Assembly (NCBI RefSeq): GCF_000146505.1
Contig: NC_017448.1
Span: forward strand, 1,770,001-1,802,000
Reading direction: 5' to 3'
Length of the DNA stretch: 32,000 bases
Source of the DNA: Fibrobacter succinogenes subsp. succinogenes S85
Lineage (GTDB): Bacteria; Fibrobacterota; Fibrobacteria; Fibrobacterales; Fibrobacteraceae
Positions 6,331 to 22,882 of this stretch are shown here, in pieces (position 1 is the first letter of the stretch; every line of letters starts with the position of its first letter). Both the position numbers and the translations under genes were made by a program. Below the pieces are notes generated by a model. The model saw nothing but the letters and a program-made list of their open reading frames with translations, was not told the DNA's origin and searched no databases.

Positions 6331-7191
<861 letters not shown>

Positions 7192-7587: not shown

Positions 7588-8460
7588 ATGGCAATCGATC
7601 AAGAAACAGTTTTTAGAGAGCACCCCTGCTTTGGCGCATGCAAGAATCGTAAAGGGCGTATCCATTTGCCCGTCGCTCCGGGTTGTAACATCGAATGCCG
7701 TTTTTGCGACCGTCGCATCAACGAAGACGCACAAGTCCCGGGAAATACAAGTAAAGTTATCAAACCGGAAGAAGCATGTGGCTATATTCGCAAGGCTCTT
7801 GAATTCGTACCGGATCTTACTACGGTGGGTATTGCAGGCCCTGGCGACACGCTCGCGACACCTTTTGCACTGGACACTTTCCGCCTCGTCAAAAAGGAAT
7901 TTCCAAACCTGATTCGTTGCATGAGCACAAACGGACTTTTGCTGAACGACAAGGCAGACGAAGTCATTGACGTGGGCATCGATACGCTTACGGTCACGGT
8001 GAACGCCGTTGACCCAGAAATCGAAGCAATGATCAATGCGAGAATTTTCTACCACGGCAAGACCTACACGGGTGTCGAAGCCGCTGAAATCTTGATCCAC
8101 AACCAGCTGGAAGGCATTCGCAAGGTTGCAAAAAGCGGGACACTCGTGAAAGTAAATACGGTTCTTTGCCCAGGCATCAACGACAACCATATCGAAGATG
8201 TGGCCGCTACAGTCCGCGAAGCGGGAGCGATTATATACAACATCATTCCGCTGATTCCGCAAAACGGATTCAAGGATCTTCCAGCCCCGACTCCGAAGGG
8301 ACTCGCAATTGCACAGGAACAGGCCGGCGTATTTATCAATGTTTTCAAGCACTGCGCTCACTGCAGAGCAGATGCTGTTGGCGTTCCCGGCGTCTATGAC
8401 GTTGGTTCACAAATCTACATGGATCGCATCCGTGTAAAGGAGACTTTCTCTCATGGCTAA
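7588..8460 (+). CDS. nifB: NifB-type radical SAM protein (catalytic domain only, no NifX-like C-terminal domain)
   Basis: 290 aa. Motifs HPCF, VAPGCNIECRFC (CX3CX2C), RCMSTNGL, TVTVNAVDPEIE and HCAHCRADAVGVPG. The stop overlaps the next gene's start by 8 nt. Confidence 0.8.
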   Translation: MAIDQETVFREHPCFGACKNRKGRIHLPVAPGCNIECRFCDRRINEDAQVPGNTSKVIKPEEACGYIRKALEFVPDLTTVGIAGPGDTLATPFALDTFRLVKKEFPNLIRCMSTNGLLLNDKADEVIDVGIDTLTVTVNAVDPEIEAMINARIFYHGKTYTGVEAAEILIHNQLEGIRKVAKSGTLVKVNTVLCPGINDNHIEDVAATVREAGAIIYNIIPLIPQNGFKDLPAPTPKGLAIAQEQAGVFINVFKHCAHCRADAVGVPGVYDVGSQIYMDRIRVKETFSHG

Positions 8461-9763
8461 AATATTGGATCAGGCGCGCTACAAATGCGCTTTGGCAGCA
8501 ATGCAGACCGTGCAATCCATTCCTGGAGCAATTCCCGTTTTGCATTCCGGTCCGGGATGCGCATCCAAGCTAAACGATAACAACGGCACGAGCGGCAGAT
8601 TCAGCCCCAACATTTACCCTTGCACAAGTATCAGCGAAAAAGAAGTCGTGTTTGGCGGTGCAGACAAGTTGCGTTCAACCATCAGCAACGCTCTCAAAAT
8701 CATCGATGCCGACCTGTTCGTGGTTCTTTCCGGTTGCACGGGTGAAATCATTGGTGACGACATTCAAGAAGTCGCAGAAGAATTCGAAGATGCCGAAAAG
8801 CCTGTCATCTGGGCAAAGACACCGGGATTCAAGGGCAACAACTACATCGGTCACGACTGGATTTTAAAGAGCATCTTTGAACAGTATGTGAGAAAGTTCA
8901 AGGGCGAAGCCCCGAAGGAAAAGGGACTCGTCAACTTATTCGCAGGCGTGCCACAGCAGGATCCGTATTGGCTTGGCAACTTGCGTGAACTCGAACGTCT
9001 TTTGCAGTCCATCGGTCTCAAGACGAATACGATTTTCGGTTTTGGTCGCGGGCTTGAAAACTTGCAGAAGATTCCGACGGCAGAATACACAATTCTAGTT
9101 TCGCCGTGGGCAGGCCTCGAAAGCGCCCAGTATCTCGAAAAGGAATTCAACATTCCGCTGTTGCACTACCCGATTTTGCCAATTGGTGCGGCCGAAACGA
9201 CAAAGTTCCTCCGTACGGTCGCTGAGTTCACGGGCGCTGACAAAGAACTCACGGAATCCGTTATCCAGCAAAACGAAGCGCAGTTCTTCTACTACCTGGA
9301 ACGCTACGCCGATACGATTCTCGAAAGCCGTATCGTGAGCAAGCGCTTTACCGTCGTGAGCGAAGCCCAGTACGTAATTGCTGTGACCAAGTTTCTCGTG
9401 AACGACATGGGTCTTTTCCCGCAAAAACTGTTCGTTACGGACGACACGCCGGAAGCATTCCGCGAAGAAGTCTCGCAAGAAACAAACACGCTGAATTACG
9501 ACATCAAAACAAAAGTCGAGTTCACCACGGACGGTTTCGACCTCCAGAATCAAATCCGCAAAATGGACTTTGGCGGCTCCCCGCTCATCATCGGTTCGAA
9601 CTGGGAAAAGAAACTCGCCCACGAACTCAAGGGCCACTTCGTGAACATCAGCTATCCGATGATCGAAAAAATCGTCATCAACTCGCATGTGGCAGGTTAT
9701 TCCGGCGGTCTTTACTTGTTGGAAGACATCTACTCTGCAGCACTTTCCATGCTGAAAATTTAA
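8453..9763 (+). CDS. Nitrogenase component-1 family protein, beta-like (NifK/NifN-like), set 1
   Basis: 436 aa. Cys12 (YKCAL), Cys36 (HSGPGC) and Cys95 (LSGCTGEIIGDD) have spacing like NifK Cys70/95/153. TPGFKGNNYIGHD resembles NifK TPSFVGSH. Confidence 0.8.
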   Translation: MAKILDQARYKCALAAMQTVQSIPGAIPVLHSGPGCASKLNDNNGTSGRFSPNIYPCTSISEKEVVFGGADKLRSTISNALKIIDADLFVVLSGCTGEIIGDDIQEVAEEFEDAEKPVIWAKTPGFKGNNYIGHDWILKSIFEQYVRKFKGEAPKEKGLVNLFAGVPQQDPYWLGNLRELERLLQSIGLKTNTIFGFGRGLENLQKIPTAEYTILVSPWAGLESAQYLEKEFNIPLLHYPILPIGAAETTKFLRTVAEFTGADKELTESVIQQNEAQFFYYLERYADTILESRIVSKRFTVVSEAQYVIAVTKFLVNDMGLFPQKLFVTDDTPEAFREEVSQETNTLNYDIKTKVEFTTDGFDLQNQIRKMDFGGSPLIIGSNWEKKLAHELKGHFVNISYPMIEKIVINSHVAGYSGGLYLLEDIYSAALSMLKI

Positions 9764-9773
9764 GGAGGATCTA

Positions 9774-11243
9774 ATGCCATTTAATTTTAAAAATGCAAAC
9801 GTCGGTGTTCGCGAAAACCGTCTTGGATCCATCACTGGATTTTCGGGCGACTTGGAAACGCTCGCACACCGCTCACAGTGCGGATCTGTCAAGAATCGCG
9901 AACGTTGCTTTAGCCAGTCCAGTTCTTGTCTTTCGGGCTGCGCTTTGGACCAGCTCATCAGTATCCGCAATGTGGCTGTCGTCTATCACGCTCCAGCCGG
10001 TTGCGTTGCGCTTGCGCAAGGTGAAGATGTCAAATTCCGCCAACTCGCCGAACGCATTAACGAAAAGACAAATTCCGTTTACGTCTGCACGGACTTGAAC
10101 GAAAACGATACAGTCTTTGGCGCTATCGAAGCACTCCGCAAGGCAACGCAGTACACGTACGAAAAGTTCCACCCGGAAGCGATTTTCCTCTCGTCTTCTT
10201 GCGTATCGGGCGTGATTGGCGAAGACGTTGACGGTCTCGCCGACGAACTCGCAGATGAATACGATATTCCAATTATTCCAATCCATTGCGAAGGTTTCAA
10301 GAGCCGCATTTGGGCCAGCGGTTTCGATATCGCGGACCACGCCGTTTTGCAGGGAATCGTGAAACCGCCCGAGAAGAAGAACAACAAGATCATCTTCAAG
10401 AACTTCTTTGAAAGCGCACGTCCGCAAATTACGGAACTTTTCAAGGAAATCGGCGCAGAACCGCAATTCGTTTATTGTAACTCCACTGTTGAAGAACTTT
10501 CGCATTTGAGCGAAGCCCAAGCAATGGTTTGCATTTGCGGAACGCTCGGCACCTACCTCGGCAACGCCCTCGAGGAAACTTACGGTGTACCATATGTGCG
10601 TACGATTAACCCGAACGGCATTACCGGTTTTGAAACTTGGTTCCGCGCTATCGGCAAAACGATTGGCAAGGAAGCCGAAGTGGAACGCTACATCGAGCGC
10701 CAGCGCGCCATTTACTTGCCACAAATCGAAGAAGTCAAGAGGGAACTCAAGGGTCTTCGCGCCGTGATCGGTATGGGCCCGGGCTACACCTACGAAGTTT
10801 CGCGCGTATTGCAGGAACTCGGTATGGAAGTGGTTCACGGTCTTGCTTGGCATTATGACTACAAGTACGATAACGGCCAGATTCCGCCAGCACTCGAACA
10901 TTTGCTGAAGACATCGCCAAAGGGGCTCAAGCTCACTGTGGCTGACCAACAAAACTACGAAGTGATGAGCGTATTGAACTATCACAAGCCGGACATTTAC
11001 TTTAGTCGTCATCCGGGCTCAACCGTATGGGCCATCAAGCAGGGTTACGCAGCGCTCTTCGTCGCCGATGAATACATGATTTTCGGTTACGAAGGAACAC
11101 TCAACTTTGCCAAGAGCATCCTCGATACCATCAAGAACCGTAGCTTTGAAAAGAGTCTTGCCGCTCGAATCAAGTTACCCTATACCAAGTGGTGGTACGA
11201 ACAAGATACAGACAAGTTCTTGAAGCCGGAAGGCGCAAGGTAA
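9774..11243 (+). CDS. Nitrogenase component-1 family protein, alpha-like (NifD/NifE-like), set 1
   Basis: 489 aa. Motifs YHAPAGC, SSSCVSGVIGEDVD, IPIHCEGFKS and MVCICGTLGTYLGNALEETYGVPY (by eye, the NifD Cys275 context). SD aaggagg. Confidence 0.8.
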   Translation: MPFNFKNANVGVRENRLGSITGFSGDLETLAHRSQCGSVKNRERCFSQSSSCLSGCALDQLISIRNVAVVYHAPAGCVALAQGEDVKFRQLAERINEKTNSVYVCTDLNENDTVFGAIEALRKATQYTYEKFHPEAIFLSSSCVSGVIGEDVDGLADELADEYDIPIIPIHCEGFKSRIWASGFDIADHAVLQGIVKPPEKKNNKIIFKNFFESARPQITELFKEIGAEPQFVYCNSTVEELSHLSEAQAMVCICGTLGTYLGNALEETYGVPYVRTINPNGITGFETWFRAIGKTIGKEAEVERYIERQRAIYLPQIEEVKRELKGLRAVIGMGPGYTYEVSRVLQELGMEVVHGLAWHYDYKYDNGQIPPALEHLLKTSPKGLKLTVADQQNYEVMSVLNYHKPDIYFSRHPGSTVWAIKQGYAALFVADEYMIFGYEGTLNFAKSILDTIKNRSFEKSLAARIKLPYTKWWYEQDTDKFLKPEGAR

Positions 11244-11266
11244 ACAAACATTTTTTTGACATGGTT

Positions 11267-11302
11267 TCTCCTGCGGGAATTTTTTCCGCAGGAGATTTTT
11301 TG
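11267..11302 (+). terminator. Rho-independent terminator of the nifB-like operon
   Basis: Perfect 10-bp stem tctcctgcgg (11267-11276) / ccgcaggaga (11286-11295), followed by tttttt. Confidence 0.75.
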
Positions 11303-11411
11303 TTTAAGCAACCAATTTCAGCTGAGATTCAAATTCAAAAAAAACGCAACAACAAAACGGCTATAGAAAATCATTATTGCCGGTTCAAGAAAAATAGTAT
11401 AAAGAAATCTC

Positions 11412-11440
11412 TTGCCAAAACGAAAGGCTTTATCTAAATT
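11412..11440 (+). promoter_or_regulatory. Candidate sigma-70-like promoter of the Cys-leader / transsulfuration operon
   Basis: TTGCCA (11412-11417), 17-nt spacer, TAAATT (11435-11440). It lies about 29 nt upstream of the leader ATG. Confidence 0.4.
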
Positions 11441-11468
11441 AACCTACAAAAGAAATAGGATATAAAAA

Positions 11469-11531
11469 ATGAATTTCCCGTTCAATAGCTTAAATTTCGC
11501 TTGTTGTTGCCGATGTCGGACGGGCATCTAG
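11469..11531 (+). CDS. Candidate Cys-codon leader peptide (MNFPFNSLNFACCCRCRTGI)
   Basis: 20-codon ORF with tgt tgt tgc cga tgt at 11502-11516. Weak SD agga lies 9 nt upstream. Followed by an intrinsic terminator, and then Cys-forming genes. Confidence 0.5.
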   Translation: MNFPFNSLNFACCCRCRTGI

Positions 11532-11557
11532 TTTTTAGGCTATTCTTTTAAACAGAT

Positions 11558-11594
11558 TCCCGCTCGGTTTGATGTTCCGTAGCGGGATTTTTTT
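11558..11594 (+). terminator. Attenuator-type intrinsic terminator in the operon leader
   Basis: tcccgctcgg (11558-11567) / ccgtagcggga (11577-11587), followed by 7 T (11588-11594). It lies 66 nt upstream of the structural-gene ATG. Confidence 0.65.
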
Positions 11595-11660
11595 ATTCAA
11601 AACAAATTTTAAACCAAAAAGGCGCTAGCATTTAATAGCGTCATAGGAGATTATTATCTT

Positions 11661-12818
11661 ATGTCAAACTTCAACAATATCGAAACAAAACTCATTCACG
11701 GCGGCATTGATGGCGACAAAACTACAGGAGCTGTAAACGTCCCTATCTACCAGACTTCCACCTACAAGCAGGCAGGCCTTGGTGAAAACACGGGTTGGGA
11801 ATATTCCCGCACAGGGAACCCGACGCGCGCAGCATTGGAAACGCTGATTGCAGAACTCGAAGGAGGAGTCGCAGGCTTTGCATTTGCAAGCGGTATGGCT
11901 GCAACAACAACCGTCCTTTCGCTTTTTAAGCAAGGAGACCGCATCATCATTTCGAGCAATGTCTATGGCGGCACTTTCCGCGTTTTGGACAAAGTTTTCA
12001 AGAATCTCGGAATTACTTATTCCATCGAAGACACGACCGATTTGAAATTGCTTGAATCCAAAATAACACCCGATGTGAAAGCATTCTTTGTCGAAAGCCC
12101 TGCAAATCCGCTCTTGACGGTAACAGACTTGGCAGGCGTTGCCGCAATTGCCAAGAAGCACAACATTTTGACCATTGTCGATAACACATTTATGACGCCG
12201 TATCTGCAGCGTCCGATTGAATTGGGTGCTGACATTGTCGTGCATTCTGCGACAAAGTATTTAGGCGGTCACAGCGACTTGGTGGCAGGGCTTGCTGTTG
12301 TCAATTCCAAGGAACTCGCTGAAAGACTCGCTTTTACGCAGAACGCAACCGGTGCTGTACTCGGACCTTTTGATTCATTCCTCTTAATTCGCGGCATCAA
12401 GACGCTTGGCGTCCGCTTGGATCGTCATACTGAAAATGCCGAAACCATCGCAAAGTATCTCGAAAAGCACGAAGCCGTAAAGCACGTGTATTATCCGGGA
12501 CTCCCGACAGCACAAGGCTACGAAATCAACAAGAAACAGGCCAAGAACGGTGGCGCTATGATTTCGTTCGAACTTCGTGAAAATTACGATATCAAAAAAT
12601 TCTTCAAAGCTCTGAAACTCGTTTCTCTTGCTGAAAGCTTGGGCGGAGTCGAAAGCCTCGTGTGCCATCCAGCCACAATGACGCATGCATCTATCCCAAA
12701 GGAAATTCGCGAAAAAGTCGGCATCACTGACGGGCTCATTCGCTTATCCGTGGGCATTGAAAAAGTTGACGACATCATCGCAGATGTTAACGCAGCCATT
12801 GAAGCCGCAAAAGCATAA
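11661..12818 (+). CDS. Cys/Met-metabolism PLP enzyme, cystathionine gamma-synthase / beta- or gamma-lyase family (MetB/MetC/MccB-like)
   Basis: 385 aa. Motifs VPIYQTSTY, YSRTGNPTR and HSATKYLGGHSD (PLP Lys). SD aggag. Confidence 0.85.
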   Translation: MSNFNNIETKLIHGGIDGDKTTGAVNVPIYQTSTYKQAGLGENTGWEYSRTGNPTRAALETLIAELEGGVAGFAFASGMAATTTVLSLFKQGDRIIISSNVYGGTFRVLDKVFKNLGITYSIEDTTDLKLLESKITPDVKAFFVESPANPLLTVTDLAGVAAIAKKHNILTIVDNTFMTPYLQRPIELGADIVVHSATKYLGGHSDLVAGLAVVNSKELAERLAFTQNATGAVLGPFDSFLLIRGIKTLGVRLDRHTENAETIAKYLEKHEAVKHVYYPGLPTAQGYEINKKQAKNGGAMISFELRENYDIKKFFKALKLVSLAESLGGVESLVCHPATMTHASIPKEIREKVGITDGLIRLSVGIEKVDDIIADVNAAIEAAKA

Positions 12819-12828
12819 GGAACAAGAT

Positions 12829-13740
12829 ATGCATTACTACGAATCCATGAAATCTCTCATTGGGAAAACGCCGCTTGTAAAATTGAATCATGTTGGTGTT
12901 CCTGAAGGTGTAAATTTATTCGTAAAGCTTGAATTGTGGAACCCTTCGGGCAGCGTAAAAGACCGCGCCGGCCTTTATATGGTCGAAGACGCGTTCGCCA
13001 AAGGGACGCTCAAACCTGGCGGAACAATTATCGAAGCAACCGCAGGCAATACCGGGCTTGGAATTGCATTTGCAGCATTGAACCGCGGAGTGCGTGTCAT
13101 TTTTGTAGTACCGACAAAATTTTCGCAAGAAAAGCAGACGCTTTTGCGTGCGCTTGGCGCAGAACTCATCAACACCCCGCGTGAAGAAGGCATGCTCGGC
13201 GCCGAAAAGAAAGCAGAAGAACTGCTGAAGCAAATTCCGGATTCCATTTCTCTCAGACAATTCCACAACATGGCAAATCCGCGGGCCCATTATGAAACGA
13301 CAGGACCTGAAATTTACGATGATCTCGATGGCAACGTTGATTATGTTGTTGCAGGCGCAGGAAGCGGCGGAACGTTCTCGGGCATTCTCAAGGCGCTCAA
13401 GGAACGCAACCCCAAAATTCAAGGCGTGCTCGCTGACCCTGTAGGCTCTACAATGGGCGGTGGCGAACATGGCGACTACAATATCGAAGGAATCGGAAAC
13501 GATTTTATTGCAGACACTATGGACATGACGCTTGTAGACCGCGTCATCAAAATTAACGATGACGACGCTTTCGGTGGTTCCCGTGAACTCGCGCAAAAAG
13601 AGGGAATTTTTGCGGGATCTTCTTCGGGCGGCGCTTTCGCAGCAGCCAAGAAACTGATTGCATCGGGCGCTCGCGGGAACATTGTCTTTGTAGCCCCAGA
13701 CCGTGGCGATCGTTACTTCAGCAAAGGTTTATACAAATAA
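12829..13740 (+). CDS. Cysteine synthase / cystathionine beta-synthase family protein (MccA-like)
   Basis: 303 aa from ATG 12829 (SD taaggaa). Motifs NPSGSVKDR, EATAGNTGLGIA, GAGSGGTFSG, ADPVGS and PDRGDRYFSK. The longer ORF start at 12685 overlaps the previous gene. Confidence 0.85.
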   Translation: MHYYESMKSLIGKTPLVKLNHVGVPEGVNLFVKLELWNPSGSVKDRAGLYMVEDAFAKGTLKPGGTIIEATAGNTGLGIAFAALNRGVRVIFVVPTKFSQEKQTLLRALGAELINTPREEGMLGAEKKAEELLKQIPDSISLRQFHNMANPRAHYETTGPEIYDDLDGNVDYVVAGAGSGGTFSGILKALKERNPKIQGVLADPVGSTMGGGEHGDYNIEGIGNDFIADTMDMTLVDRVIKINDDDAFGGSRELAQKEGIFAGSSSGGAFAAAKKLIASGARGNIVFVAPDRGDRYFSKGLYK

Positions 13741-13764: not shown

Positions 13765-14646
13765 GTGCACAAGTTTATGATTAGCAAAACTGCGCTTTTA
13801 TGCGCTCTTGCCCGAGCTGTCCACACTCACGCTAAAAGTGAAAAAATTTTTGAAGACGAATTTGCACAGGATTTTGTGGGTTTGAAGGAATATCGCCACG
13901 CACGCAATCTTGCAAGGCAGTTCCTTCCTGCAAAAAAGTCGAAGTCCAAAGATTACCCGGCTAAGGATTTTATTGACCAATACCTTCTCCCCATCATTCT
14001 TCCACGAAATCGATTTGCAGAAGATATTGTCGATGCCAAGCAGAAAACAGGAGATGTGCAATACGTTCTATTGGGTGCGGGCCTAGATTCCTTTGCGCTT
14101 AGGAACAAAAGTCAAAACGTCGATGTCTTTGAACTGGATCTGTACGAAACACAAGTTTTCAAAATCGAGCGGACGCGACAACTTTTCACAAAGAGGCGTC
14201 CCAAAGTTCACTTTGTAGAAATCGATTTCAACAAGGATAGCATCATCAGCAGATTGACAAACGCTGGTTTTAATCCGAAAAAACGCTCCGTCTTTTCGAT
14301 TCTCGGCGTGTCCTACTACATTCCTATTGAAATCTTTTTCAAGACGATTGCGGAAATTTCTAAGATAGCAGCACCCAATAGTGCAATAGTATTCGATTAC
14401 TATGAAAAAGAGCGGGACAGTGCGGACAGCACAACCAAAATCAGCCGCTTAAAACAAATAACAGCATCGTGCGGCGAGTGTATGGTTGACGGATACGATC
14501 CCGTTCAAGTTGACAATTTGGCCAGGAAATCGGGTATCCAATATTGTCACGACCTTTCTCCTAAAGATATCGACGAAGCCTTTTTCAGTGCATCAACTGG
14601 ATTGTCCGCATTCGAGGGCGTTCATCTGATGTATTGCGGTTTGTAA
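13765..14646 (+). CDS. Class I SAM-dependent methyltransferase, leucine carboxyl methyltransferase (LCM)-like family
   Basis: 293 aa. Motifs ALLCALARAVH and VQYVLLGAGLDSFALRN...VFELDLYET. The start is ambiguous (GTG 13765 or ATG 13777). Confidence 0.6.
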   Translation: MHKFMISKTALLCALARAVHTHAKSEKIFEDEFAQDFVGLKEYRHARNLARQFLPAKKSKSKDYPAKDFIDQYLLPIILPRNRFAEDIVDAKQKTGDVQYVLLGAGLDSFALRNKSQNVDVFELDLYETQVFKIERTRQLFTKRRPKVHFVEIDFNKDSIISRLTNAGFNPKKRSVFSILGVSYYIPIEIFFKTIAEISKIAAPNSAIVFDYYEKERDSADSTTKISRLKQITASCGECMVDGYDPVQVDNLARKSGIQYCHDLSPKDIDEAFFSASTGLSAFEGVHLMYCGL

Positions 14647-18568: not shown

Positions 18569-18920
18569 GGAGAAACTCCTATTTTTTATGAGTTTAGTAA
18601 CCACGCAGAGCAATATTCTGCGCACTTTTAAAATTGCCGATTAGCCATTTAAAATGGCTTTGGCTTAGTTATTGGAGAATTTACAGCTACAACACATATA
18701 GGTATCCTCGTGTTGATTTGTGGAAGTTTCGGAACACAATGTTCTCGAATGCAACGCTTAAATTAGAAAAGAAAAAATGATTTGTAAAATACTTTATTTT
18801 TATCACACGATATAAGAAATTTATTTACATATAAAGTATAGTTATACAAAATAAACTCAAATAGCAGTAGCCTATACATGTACAATAGATTCCCGCCGGA
18901 GTTTATCATACGAGCATTAT

Positions 18921-22012: not shown

Positions 22013-22882
<870 letters not shown>

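Follow-up and report, generated by a model that had tools for sequence, protein, structure and literature searches.

Classical transcription attenuators (trpL, hisL, leuL, thrL, ilvL, and pheL) have a short open reading frame (ORF) in the 5′ leader, led by a Shine-Dalgarno (SD) sequence and carrying a run of codons for the end product. Their antiterminator and terminator are mutually exclusive and share a strand, and the stop codon is positioned such that a terminating ribosome masks the antiterminator strand. Leaders with cysteine (Cys) codons are known as well. Such leaders, lacking terminators, have been predicted in Actinobacteria (Seliverstov et al. 2005, PMC1262725), and uORFC-8-2, a Cys upstream ORF with an intrinsic terminator 5′ of cysS in Rhodobacterales, has been predicted to attenuate transcription through the ribosome (Brewer et al. 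2021, PMC8632094). In mycobacteria, leaderless polycysteine short ORFs (Ms5788A and the “Cys ribulon,” a term coined in that study) are Cys-responsive translational attenuators (Canestrari et al. 2020, bioRxiv 10.1101/834739). The ubiG-mccB-mccA operon of Clostridium acetobutylicum, which serves methionine (Met)-to-Cys conversion, is under a Cys-specific T-box (André et al. 2008, PMC2566862). We analyzed a 32,000-nucleotide (nt) stretch of the Fibrobacter succinogenes subsp. succinogenes S85 genome (NC_017448.1, forward-strand positions 1,770,001–1,802,000; hereafter the window, within which all positions are numbered). In agreement with this origin, the best matches of its proteins are to F. 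succinogenes and Fibrobacter sp. MAGs, at 96–99% identity. An earlier note, made from the sequence of this stretch alone, had proposed a Cys-sensing leader-peptide attenuator upstream of a cysteine-forming operon; its genes, mccB-mccA-methyltransferase, read as a Met-to-Cys operon. The note took Cys-codon leaders to have been predicted only rarely, which is dated given those described in Actinobacteria and Rhodobacterales. Its central proposal is supported by a conserved ORF, competing predicted folds, the logic of ribosome masking, and recurrence at other loci, and we consider the leader probably to be a ribosome-mediated transcription attenuator that senses the supply of Cys-tRNA(Cys) for these three genes.

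The leader ORF (11469–11531; plus strand, as are all features below unless noted) has 20 codons, ends in a TAG stop, and encodes MNFPFNSLNFACCCRCRTGI. Its SD, UAGGA (11456–11460), is located 8 nt 5′ of the ATG. The putative regulatory codons (UGU UGU UGC, CGA, and UGU; 11502–11516) place four cysteines within five codons, the first of them 15 nt 5′ of the base of the antiterminator helix described below; the coordinates and translation originally given for this ORF check out. Of all codons in the window's genes, 1.4% are for Cys, and an ATG-initiated short ORF with at least four Cys in five codons is expected 0.04 times per shuffled window. The leader Cys codons are nearly all UGU, the less used of the two Cys codons in genes of the window (29 UGU versus 101 UGC). 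This preference could fit a sensitivity to rare codons, as is known for the leuL leader, or could reflect a constraint at the RNA level.

Leader loci were collected through the MccB protein, a choice that is unbiased with respect to the leader, which yielded five distinct species-level Fibrobacter genomes having the leader. A metagenome scan anchored on the terminator alone gave ten further variants, all 5′ of the same gene; a Cys-rich short ORF was found at 0 of 109 other, unrelated metagenomic loci with the same terminator pattern. The conservation set comprises 16 distinct Fibrobacter leader sequences, to which the counts of variants below refer. All 16 keep an SD, an ATG, and three to four in-frame Cys codons, and the check named beforehand, on whether relatives conserve the ORF, thus comes out for an attenuator. 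The TAGG of the SD is invariant in the alignment, and AGGA lies at most 16 nt from an in-frame ATG in 16/16 variants. The peptide itself drifts (for example, MNFLFNSFNSVCCC, MNQKMMNMCCCCWS, MMLIYSSSCCWCRCRAGD, MTQYLMNMCCFCWGRCRTGD, and MITLFANMCCKCRCRAGD), with a length of 14 to 20 residues and two alternative stop positions, and the first Cys codon is 15–24 nt from the helix base. A synonymous UGC/UGU change distinguishes the window from L002. The block extending from TGTCG through the U-run is near-invariant at the DNA level, and its elements TGTCGRRCGGGC..CTAGTTTTTAGGCT..AAACA..TTCCCGCTC are kept whether translated or not. The ORF of L001 and L003 ends 18 nt sooner, yet both retain the block that encodes RCRTGI elsewhere. 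Because the block is kept in these two despite the early stop and the peptide drifts, the constraint on the block appears to be at the RNA level and that on the ORF to be on its frame and Cys codons.

The ORF is followed by an intrinsic terminator (11556–11594), consisting of a stem (11558–11587; 10 bp with one bulged U), a loop (11568–11576), and seven T (11588–11594). What had been described as a clean terminator is also a strong one in the window (−16.7 kcal/mol, z = −5.2 versus shuffles), and it is present in all variants (−16.5 to −18.2 kcal/mol), being invariant by construction in the ten retrieved by means of it. In L004 and L165, CAA/UUG takes the place of CGG/CCG at the top of the stem. 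Folding of the RNA, which the earlier note had suggested as a check, yielded an alternative helix that competes with the terminator. This antiterminator is an imperfect hairpin of ~18 bp (11517–11566), assigned from predicted folds and conservation. Its 5′ strand, CGG.CGGG.AUCU.GUUU..AGG, comprises the last ORF codons and the UAG stop, and its 3′ strand, CUU..AAACAGAU.CCCG.UCG, doubles as the 5′ arm of the terminator. The pairing of cgggcatc with gattcccg that had been noticed by eye is real and constitutes the central part of this longer helix, but gattcccg is located at 11555–11562 and not at 11556–11563. The antiterminator is the minimum-free-energy fold of RNA cut before the terminator 3′ arm in 5/5 variants tested. 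Its predicted energy is −14.8 kcal/mol in the window (z = −3.07; z = −1.7 in L003 and −4.0 in L004) and ranges from −11.7 to −22.1 kcal/mol across variants. RNAalifold recovers the antiterminator from the truncated 16-sequence alignment, and 91% of cells in the count of its pairs are paired.

The effect of a ribosome on these folds was modeled by masking the nucleotides it covers, taken as −15 to either +9 or +12 relative to the A site. When one of the Cys1–3 codons is in the A site, the terminator 5′ arm of the window is predicted to be paired in the antiterminator with a probability of 0.57–0.79, and this probability drops to 0.13–0.17 once the stop codon is in the A site. The direction of the effect is the same in L001, L003, and L004. 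Relative to the helix base, the stop codon lies 12 nt inside or 6 nt ahead, and in either case a terminating ribosome would be positioned over the basal CGG.CGGG strand.

These predictions suggest the following mechanism. Transcription would start ~20 nt 5′ of the leader ORF, and the last ORF codons (CGG ACG GGC AUC UAG) would form the 5′ strand of the antiterminator, whose 3′ strand is the terminator 5′ arm. When charged tRNA-Cys is scarce, the ribosome would stall with its A site on the first UGU/UGC codons (11502–11510). Its front edge would then be short of the helix base, the antiterminator would persist, and the polymerase would read into mccB. When Cys is plentiful, the ribosome would reach the stop codon and unwind the basal CGG.CGGG strand; CCCGCUCG would thereby be freed to pair with the 3′ arm, leading to termination at 11588–11594. 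Translation of the ORF, stalling, coupling of polymerase and ribosome, and a response to cysteine in vivo are presumed in this scheme. As far as the modeled folds indicate, the leader has the features by which leader-peptide transcription attenuators are recognized in silico, namely an ORF, Cys enrichment, a terminator, an antiterminator that shares a strand with it, and suitably placed codons.

Cys-rich leader ORFs also occur at orthologous operons in other phyla, where the earlier note had proposed looking for them. The comparison set comprised 80 MccB-orthologous loci, with the opposite strand as control. An SD-preceded Cys-rich short ORF lies just 5′ of 23 of the 27 loci with the gene order methyltransferase-mccB-mccA, versus 0/27 on the opposite strand, and mccB-first loci have 14 such ORFs versus 2 on the control strand. 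All 13 leaders that were examined closely have a terminator-like hairpin after the Cys ORF, which a U-run follows in nearly every case (L001 having a weak one), and their Cys codons are a mixture of UGU and UGC. The leaders from Ruminococcus, other Bacillota, Treponema, and another spirochaete cannot be aligned with the Fibrobacter leader; encoded peptides include MNMNFYADRSISSCCQCCCRHRRT (Treponema, L012), MRNNMMCCMQCCCCMNKSNDIRILHTYAQRCCVIS (Ruminococcus, L043), MKGELNMRHFSMCCCCCMNSNYMFRIVRTYAQRCCSF (R. flavefaciens ND2009, L046), and MKNTVFAKCCCCIKNEYCCNDGT (Ruminiclostridium, L034). Common to them are the Cys run, its position, and the terminator, as a sensor based on ribosome stalling predicts. 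In Treponema L012, L037, and L047 and in spirochaete L009, the 3′ end of the ORF repeats the terminator 3′ arm and can for this reason serve as the antiterminator strand; in L009, the Cys codons additionally take part in a classical 1:2 pairing. The masking model gave the expected direction in 8 of 11 other-locus leaders. The leaders of L048, L034, L046, and L068, each with a Cys ORF and a terminator, were set aside, as the simple masking model misses the expected direction in them.

The Fibrobacter leader shares with the classical attenuators the architecture set out at the beginning and, with leuL, the use of a minor codon; its helix energies are similar to those of the E. coli leaders. It differs in its regulatory amino acid, Cys, in its phylum, Fibrobacterota, and in having no sequence or Rfam relationship to them. 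Rfam covariance models, including those for leader families, the T-box, and S-adenosylmethionine (SAM) riboswitches, had no match in the window at gathering scores, and matches at E-values up to 10 in the region 11150–11750 were at chance level only. Likewise, no Rfam match, including the T-box, S-box, and known leaders, was found in 20 orthologous loci. With uORFC-8-2, the leader has in common tandem Cys codons, a terminal U-run, and Cys-tRNA charging as the predicted signal. However, uORFC-8-2 belongs to Alphaproteobacteria, precedes cysS, and has two Cys codons, at positions 14–15, inside the first of two stems, whereas the Fibrobacter leader precedes a Met-to-Cys operon and has three to four Cys codons just 5′ of the antiterminator and outside the stems, and the sequences are unrelated.

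Like the mycobacterial short ORFs, in which Cys runs relieve attenuation of downstream cysteine-related operons under Cys limitation, the Fibrobacter leader is predicted to respond to limiting Cys. The mycobacterial ORFs are leaderless and have no SD, the one that has been studied acts on translation by sequestering the downstream SD, and no intrinsic terminators were found there. In contrast, the Fibrobacter ORF has an SD, the −10 hexamer of its promoter ends 28 nt before the ATG (the start being predicted), and the output element is a canonical intrinsic terminator, with the SD of mccB predicted to be left unpaired. The C. acetobutylicum T-box acts at the same type of operon, on the same tRNA-Cys charging signal, and by antitermination at a leader terminator, as predicted here, but its sensor is an RNA-tRNA interaction and that proposed for Fibrobacter is a translating ribosome. 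The Fibrobacter leader is outside all Rfam families, uORFC-8-2, and the leaderless mycobacterial class. A literature search returned no description of a Cys leader for Fibrobacter or for mccB/ubiG operons, and a Cys attenuator at a Met-to-Cys operon and in these phyla is apparently undescribed so far.

Several observations weigh against such an attenuator. The untranslated Fibrobacter RNA is predicted to antiterminate (probability 0.8), that is, to read through and not to super-attenuate, unlike trp or his, and no conserved 1:2 (region-1:region-2) protector dominating the fold, as in classical attenuators, was found among the Fibrobacter variants. Masking at the stop codon has a weak effect in L005 (0.68–0.71) and a partial one in L003 (0.50–0.61). 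In one Fibrobacter genome, L006, the operon lacks the leader. The near-exclusive use of UGU in Fibrobacter leaders could signify an RNA motif and not a codon-level constraint, although leaders of other phyla mix UGU and UGC. Among the 16 variants, which fall in three clades, double-sided compensatory changes occur in 0/18 antiterminator pairs, and only four one-sided G-U/A-U changes were seen; support for the antiterminator comes from predicted thermodynamics and conservation, not from covariation. Finally, when the full leader is folded at equilibrium under ribosome masks, the terminator has a probability of ~1 in almost every state, and the model would have to rely on kinetic, co-transcriptional competition. 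That the terminator wins at equilibrium is expected for attenuators and is uninformative, and this non-discriminating test was replaced by folding of the RNA truncated before the terminator 3′ arm.

Two further pairings lie within the leader. A small hairpin, P (11512–11528; −7.7 kcal/mol, z = −3.2), is formed by GAUGUC/GGCAUC and followed by UAGUUUUU, and was flagged as terminator-like. Its energy is about −4 to −8 kcal/mol across variants; in the other clades the register is shifted, giving a hairpin of 4 bp whose end falls on the same base. Hairpin P and UAGUUUUU may, by their modeled folds, constitute a pause signal or a 1:2-type element, and hairpin P is not predicted to outcompete the antiterminator. 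A protector pairing of UUCCCGUU (11475–11482) with ACGGG, present in the minimum-free-energy fold of the window, was rejected because L001, L094, and others lack CCCG; the UUCCCG pairing is confined to the window and not conserved.

The same helices could in principle be toggled by an RNA switch that binds a protein or ligand (riboswitch-like or TRAP/PyrR-like), the UGU codons and ORF being incidental or the binding site. We judge this unlikely, although it is the alternative that survives best. It would explain why CUAGUUUUUAGGCU and its partner AAACA are invariant beyond the needs of a plain helix and why UGU prevails where UGC is preferred in the window's genes; the lack of covariation also speaks for it, and an extra factor could supply the OFF state for an RNA that antiterminates when untranslated. 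However, each UGU or UGC lies, without exception, in the frame of the SD and ATG, a synonymous UGC/UGU change separates the window from L002, and the peptide drifts in sequence and length while its frame is kept. In addition, the unrelated leaders of other phyla have in common only mixed UGU/UGC Cys codons and a terminator, and no Rfam model matched even at permissive thresholds.

The first gene under the predicted control of the leader is mccB-like (11661–12818) and encodes a pyridoxal phosphate enzyme of the cystathionine γ-lyase/homocysteine desulfhydrase family. A profile search matched its product to Pfam Cys_Met_Meta_PP (E = 1.9e-157); the best NCBIfam matches, PRK06176 and PRK07671, are each under their own cut-off, and the nearest Protein Data Bank (PDB) entries are the MccB-type cystathionine γ-lyases 4L0O and 7D7O. 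The mccA-like gene (12829–13740) encodes a protein of the CysK/O-acetylserine (OAS)-dependent cystathionine β-synthase (CBS) family, with a match to Pfam PALP, matches to NCBIfam cysKM, cysK, and CBS that are all under cut-offs, and the OAS-dependent CBS/CysK-type entries 5XW3, 6AHI, and 5B1H as nearest in the PDB. The pair of MetB/MccB-like and MccA/CBS-like enzymes named in the earlier note is borne out by these matches, and mccA adjoins mccB in 80/80 MccB-orthologous loci. The third gene (13765–14646) encodes a SAM-dependent methyltransferase of the LCM/TIGR00027 type. By analogy, we take it as the functional counterpart of ubiG/yrrT in Met-to-Cys operons; a methyltransferase homologue is located immediately 5′ of mccB in the 27 loci mentioned above, which is the ubiG-mccBA order. 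From their sequences, the three genes read as an operon that converts Met-derived homocysteine to Cys. A Cys-sensing leader makes functional sense here because the Cys T-box of the equivalent C. acetobutylicum operon senses the same signal (PMC2566862). The gene 5′ of the leader, whose end is at 11243, has a terminator of its own (11267–11295), which indicates that the leader opens a separate transcription unit.

Directly 5′ of the mccB SD (AGGAG, 11645–11649) is a GC-rich hairpin (GGCGCUA/UAGCGUC, 11621–11642). The hairpin at this position differs in sequence in each Fibrobacter clade and also occurs in L006, which has no leader, and it is probably not part of the switch. A comparable hairpin lies 5′ of the SD of a porin gene in the window, and hairpins of this kind may be mRNA 5′ stabilizers or processing sites. 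The proximity of a conserved hairpin to the mccB SD is nevertheless one of the points in favor of a different output, in which stalling at Cys codons is sensed but acts on translation, Rho-dependent termination, or mRNA stability, the leader hairpin and U-run being a constitutive leaky terminator or a stabilizer. The mycobacterial Cys short ORF that has been studied does act by SD sequestration (bioRxiv 10.1101/834739), and the window's second conserved Cys short ORF (18665–18697, minus strand) has no U-run terminator. Set against this are a leader terminator that is canonical and strong and that shares a strand with a conserved alternative helix overlapping the 3′ end of the ORF, and an mccB SD that is unpaired and free of sequestration in every predicted fold. 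Such an output therefore seems to us slightly less probable still than an RNA switch. The least probable of the alternatives, and very improbable, is a functional Cys-rich micropeptide (a metal or redox binder, or a precursor modified by a neighboring radical-SAM enzyme) whose terminator merely ends the transcript: its ORF is conserved, its product is Cys-rich, and a NifB-like radical-SAM gene lies 3 kb upstream, but the peptide is unconserved outside the Cys run and of variable length (14 to 20 residues), its C-terminal RCRTGI is untranslated in two lineages in which the DNA is still conserved, the radical-SAM gene belongs to a separate upstream (marB-like) operon with its own terminator at 11267–11295, and the same architecture precedes operons with no radical-SAM neighbor.

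The only other intergenic ATG ORF in the window with adjacent Cys codons is SD-preceded and encodes MCCSCKFSNN (18665–18697, minus strand; leader region 18570–18790). It is located in the 5′ leader of a minus-strand operon that consists of a porin-like gene (start near 18569) and genes for an NMT1/Ssu-like binding protein, an ATP-binding cassette (ABC) ATPase, and a permease. The Met-Cys-Cys start is kept in L117, L094, and L180, the remainder of the peptide drifts, and after the ORF comes a conserved hairpin, GUGCGCAGAAUAUUGCUCUGCGUGG, that lacks a U-run. In having more than one such ORF, the window resembles the mycobacterial ribulon, in which one device serves several operons. A further Cys leader, MSIQFANICCMSGRC, occurs in Fibrobacter MAG_346 (L001:1353–1400), where it precedes a methyltransferase paralogue and lies shortly ahead of that genome's mccB leader. 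Its core, CGATGT.GACGGGC, is common to the mccB leader, owing to which the two leaders appear paralogous, and it is followed by a hairpin with a weak U-run.

The operon upstream of the leader encodes a NifB-like radical-SAM protein and two nitrogenase-component-1-like proteins, and two NifH-like genes are also in the window (regions concerned, taken together: 6331–7176, minus strand; 7588–11243, plus strand; 22013–22858, minus strand). The best solved relatives of the two nitrogenase-component-1-like proteins are MarK/MarD of methylthio-alkane reductase (9FMG and 9D9U; E = 1e-107 and 1e-90), as compared to 1e-33 or weaker for true nitrogenases. With its MarK/MarD-like, NifB-like, and NifH-like genes, the window looks like an anaerobic organosulfur-salvage island adjoining the Met-to-Cys operon. 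NifB-like and NifH-like genes also adjoin mccB-mccA in Treponema, Ruminococcus albus, and other Bacillota (L010, L031, L035, L044, L070, and L078), and MccB is ~80% identical among Fibrobacter, Ruminococcus, and Treponema. The nif-like neighbors in several phyla and this level of identity suggest that the island spread among rumen phyla by horizontal transfer. In chemostats of F. succinogenes S85, a co-expression cluster rose with growth rate despite cysteine in the medium, which its authors called unexplained; the cluster was enriched in sulfur metabolism, Cys/Met metabolism, ABC transporters, “nitrogen metabolism,” and “chloroalkane degradation” (PMC6204037). Nif-like genes fall under the latter two of these KEGG classes. 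Such an expression pattern would be in line with a sensor of tRNA-Cys charging.

A wider reading, which we put forward tentatively and hold to be rather doubtful, is that the Fibrobacter leader belongs to a large cross-phylum set of polycysteine attenuators that replace the Cys T-box at (methyltransferase)-mccB-mccA, and that Fibrobacter has a Cys ribulon coordinating the organosulfur island. If so, members of the set would occur in Fibrobacterota, Spirochaetota, and Bacillota, Ruminococcus flavefaciens among the latter, and the ribulon would comprise the mccB leader, the Met-Cys-Cys short ORF before the porin/ABC-transporter operon, and the paralogous methyltransferase leader. It would coordinate the Mar-like methylthio-alkane reductase, Met-to-Cys conversion, and transporters, and could account for the rise of S85 sulfur genes with growth rate in cysteine-containing medium. 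An attenuator at the mccB leader would introduce no new mechanism, the mechanism being a textbook one. It would, however, add Fibrobacterota and, going by the comparative scan, Spirochaetota and rumen Bacillota to Actinobacteria and Rhodobacterales as groups with Cys-codon attenuation. The same Met-to-Cys operon would then be coupled to the charging of tRNA-Cys through a T-box in clostridia and through an unrelated sensor, a leader peptide, in Fibrobacter. The attenuator would also offer an easily mutated handle on sulfur regulation in a cellulolytic rumen bacterium in which sulfur-gene induction has been called unexplained (PMC6204037), and it brings to attention short ORFs that are unannotated and overlooked by genome annotation.

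Transcription of the leader is predicted to start near 11446–11448 from a σ70-type promoter (11412–11440), with a −35 hexamer TTGCCA (11412–11417), a 17-nt spacer, and a −10 hexamer TAAATT (11435–11440). The element is present as the earlier note had read it, and its position is kept across Fibrobacter orthologues, with versions nearer to consensus (TTGACA-17-TATATT) in L003 and L005. The promoter scan, however, found 2 sites versus 2.1 expected in shuffles, and as stand-alone evidence it was rejected for not exceeding chance. A 5′ hairpin, CCUAC...UAGG, that takes in the leader SD is probably irrelevant, as the predicted start site is inside or past CCUAC. An A/T-rich box, GAAAAATAGTATAA (11389–11402), lies ~10 nt 5′ of the −35 hexamer and is near-invariant across Fibrobacter clades with unalignable flanks, having a single substitution in one variant, L145. 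The box may be an UP-like element or a site for an activator or shared regulator. It resembles AUAAAAAUAAAGUAU (~18800–18815, minus strand), which is located just 5′ of a −35-like TTTACA in the leader of the second Cys short ORF.

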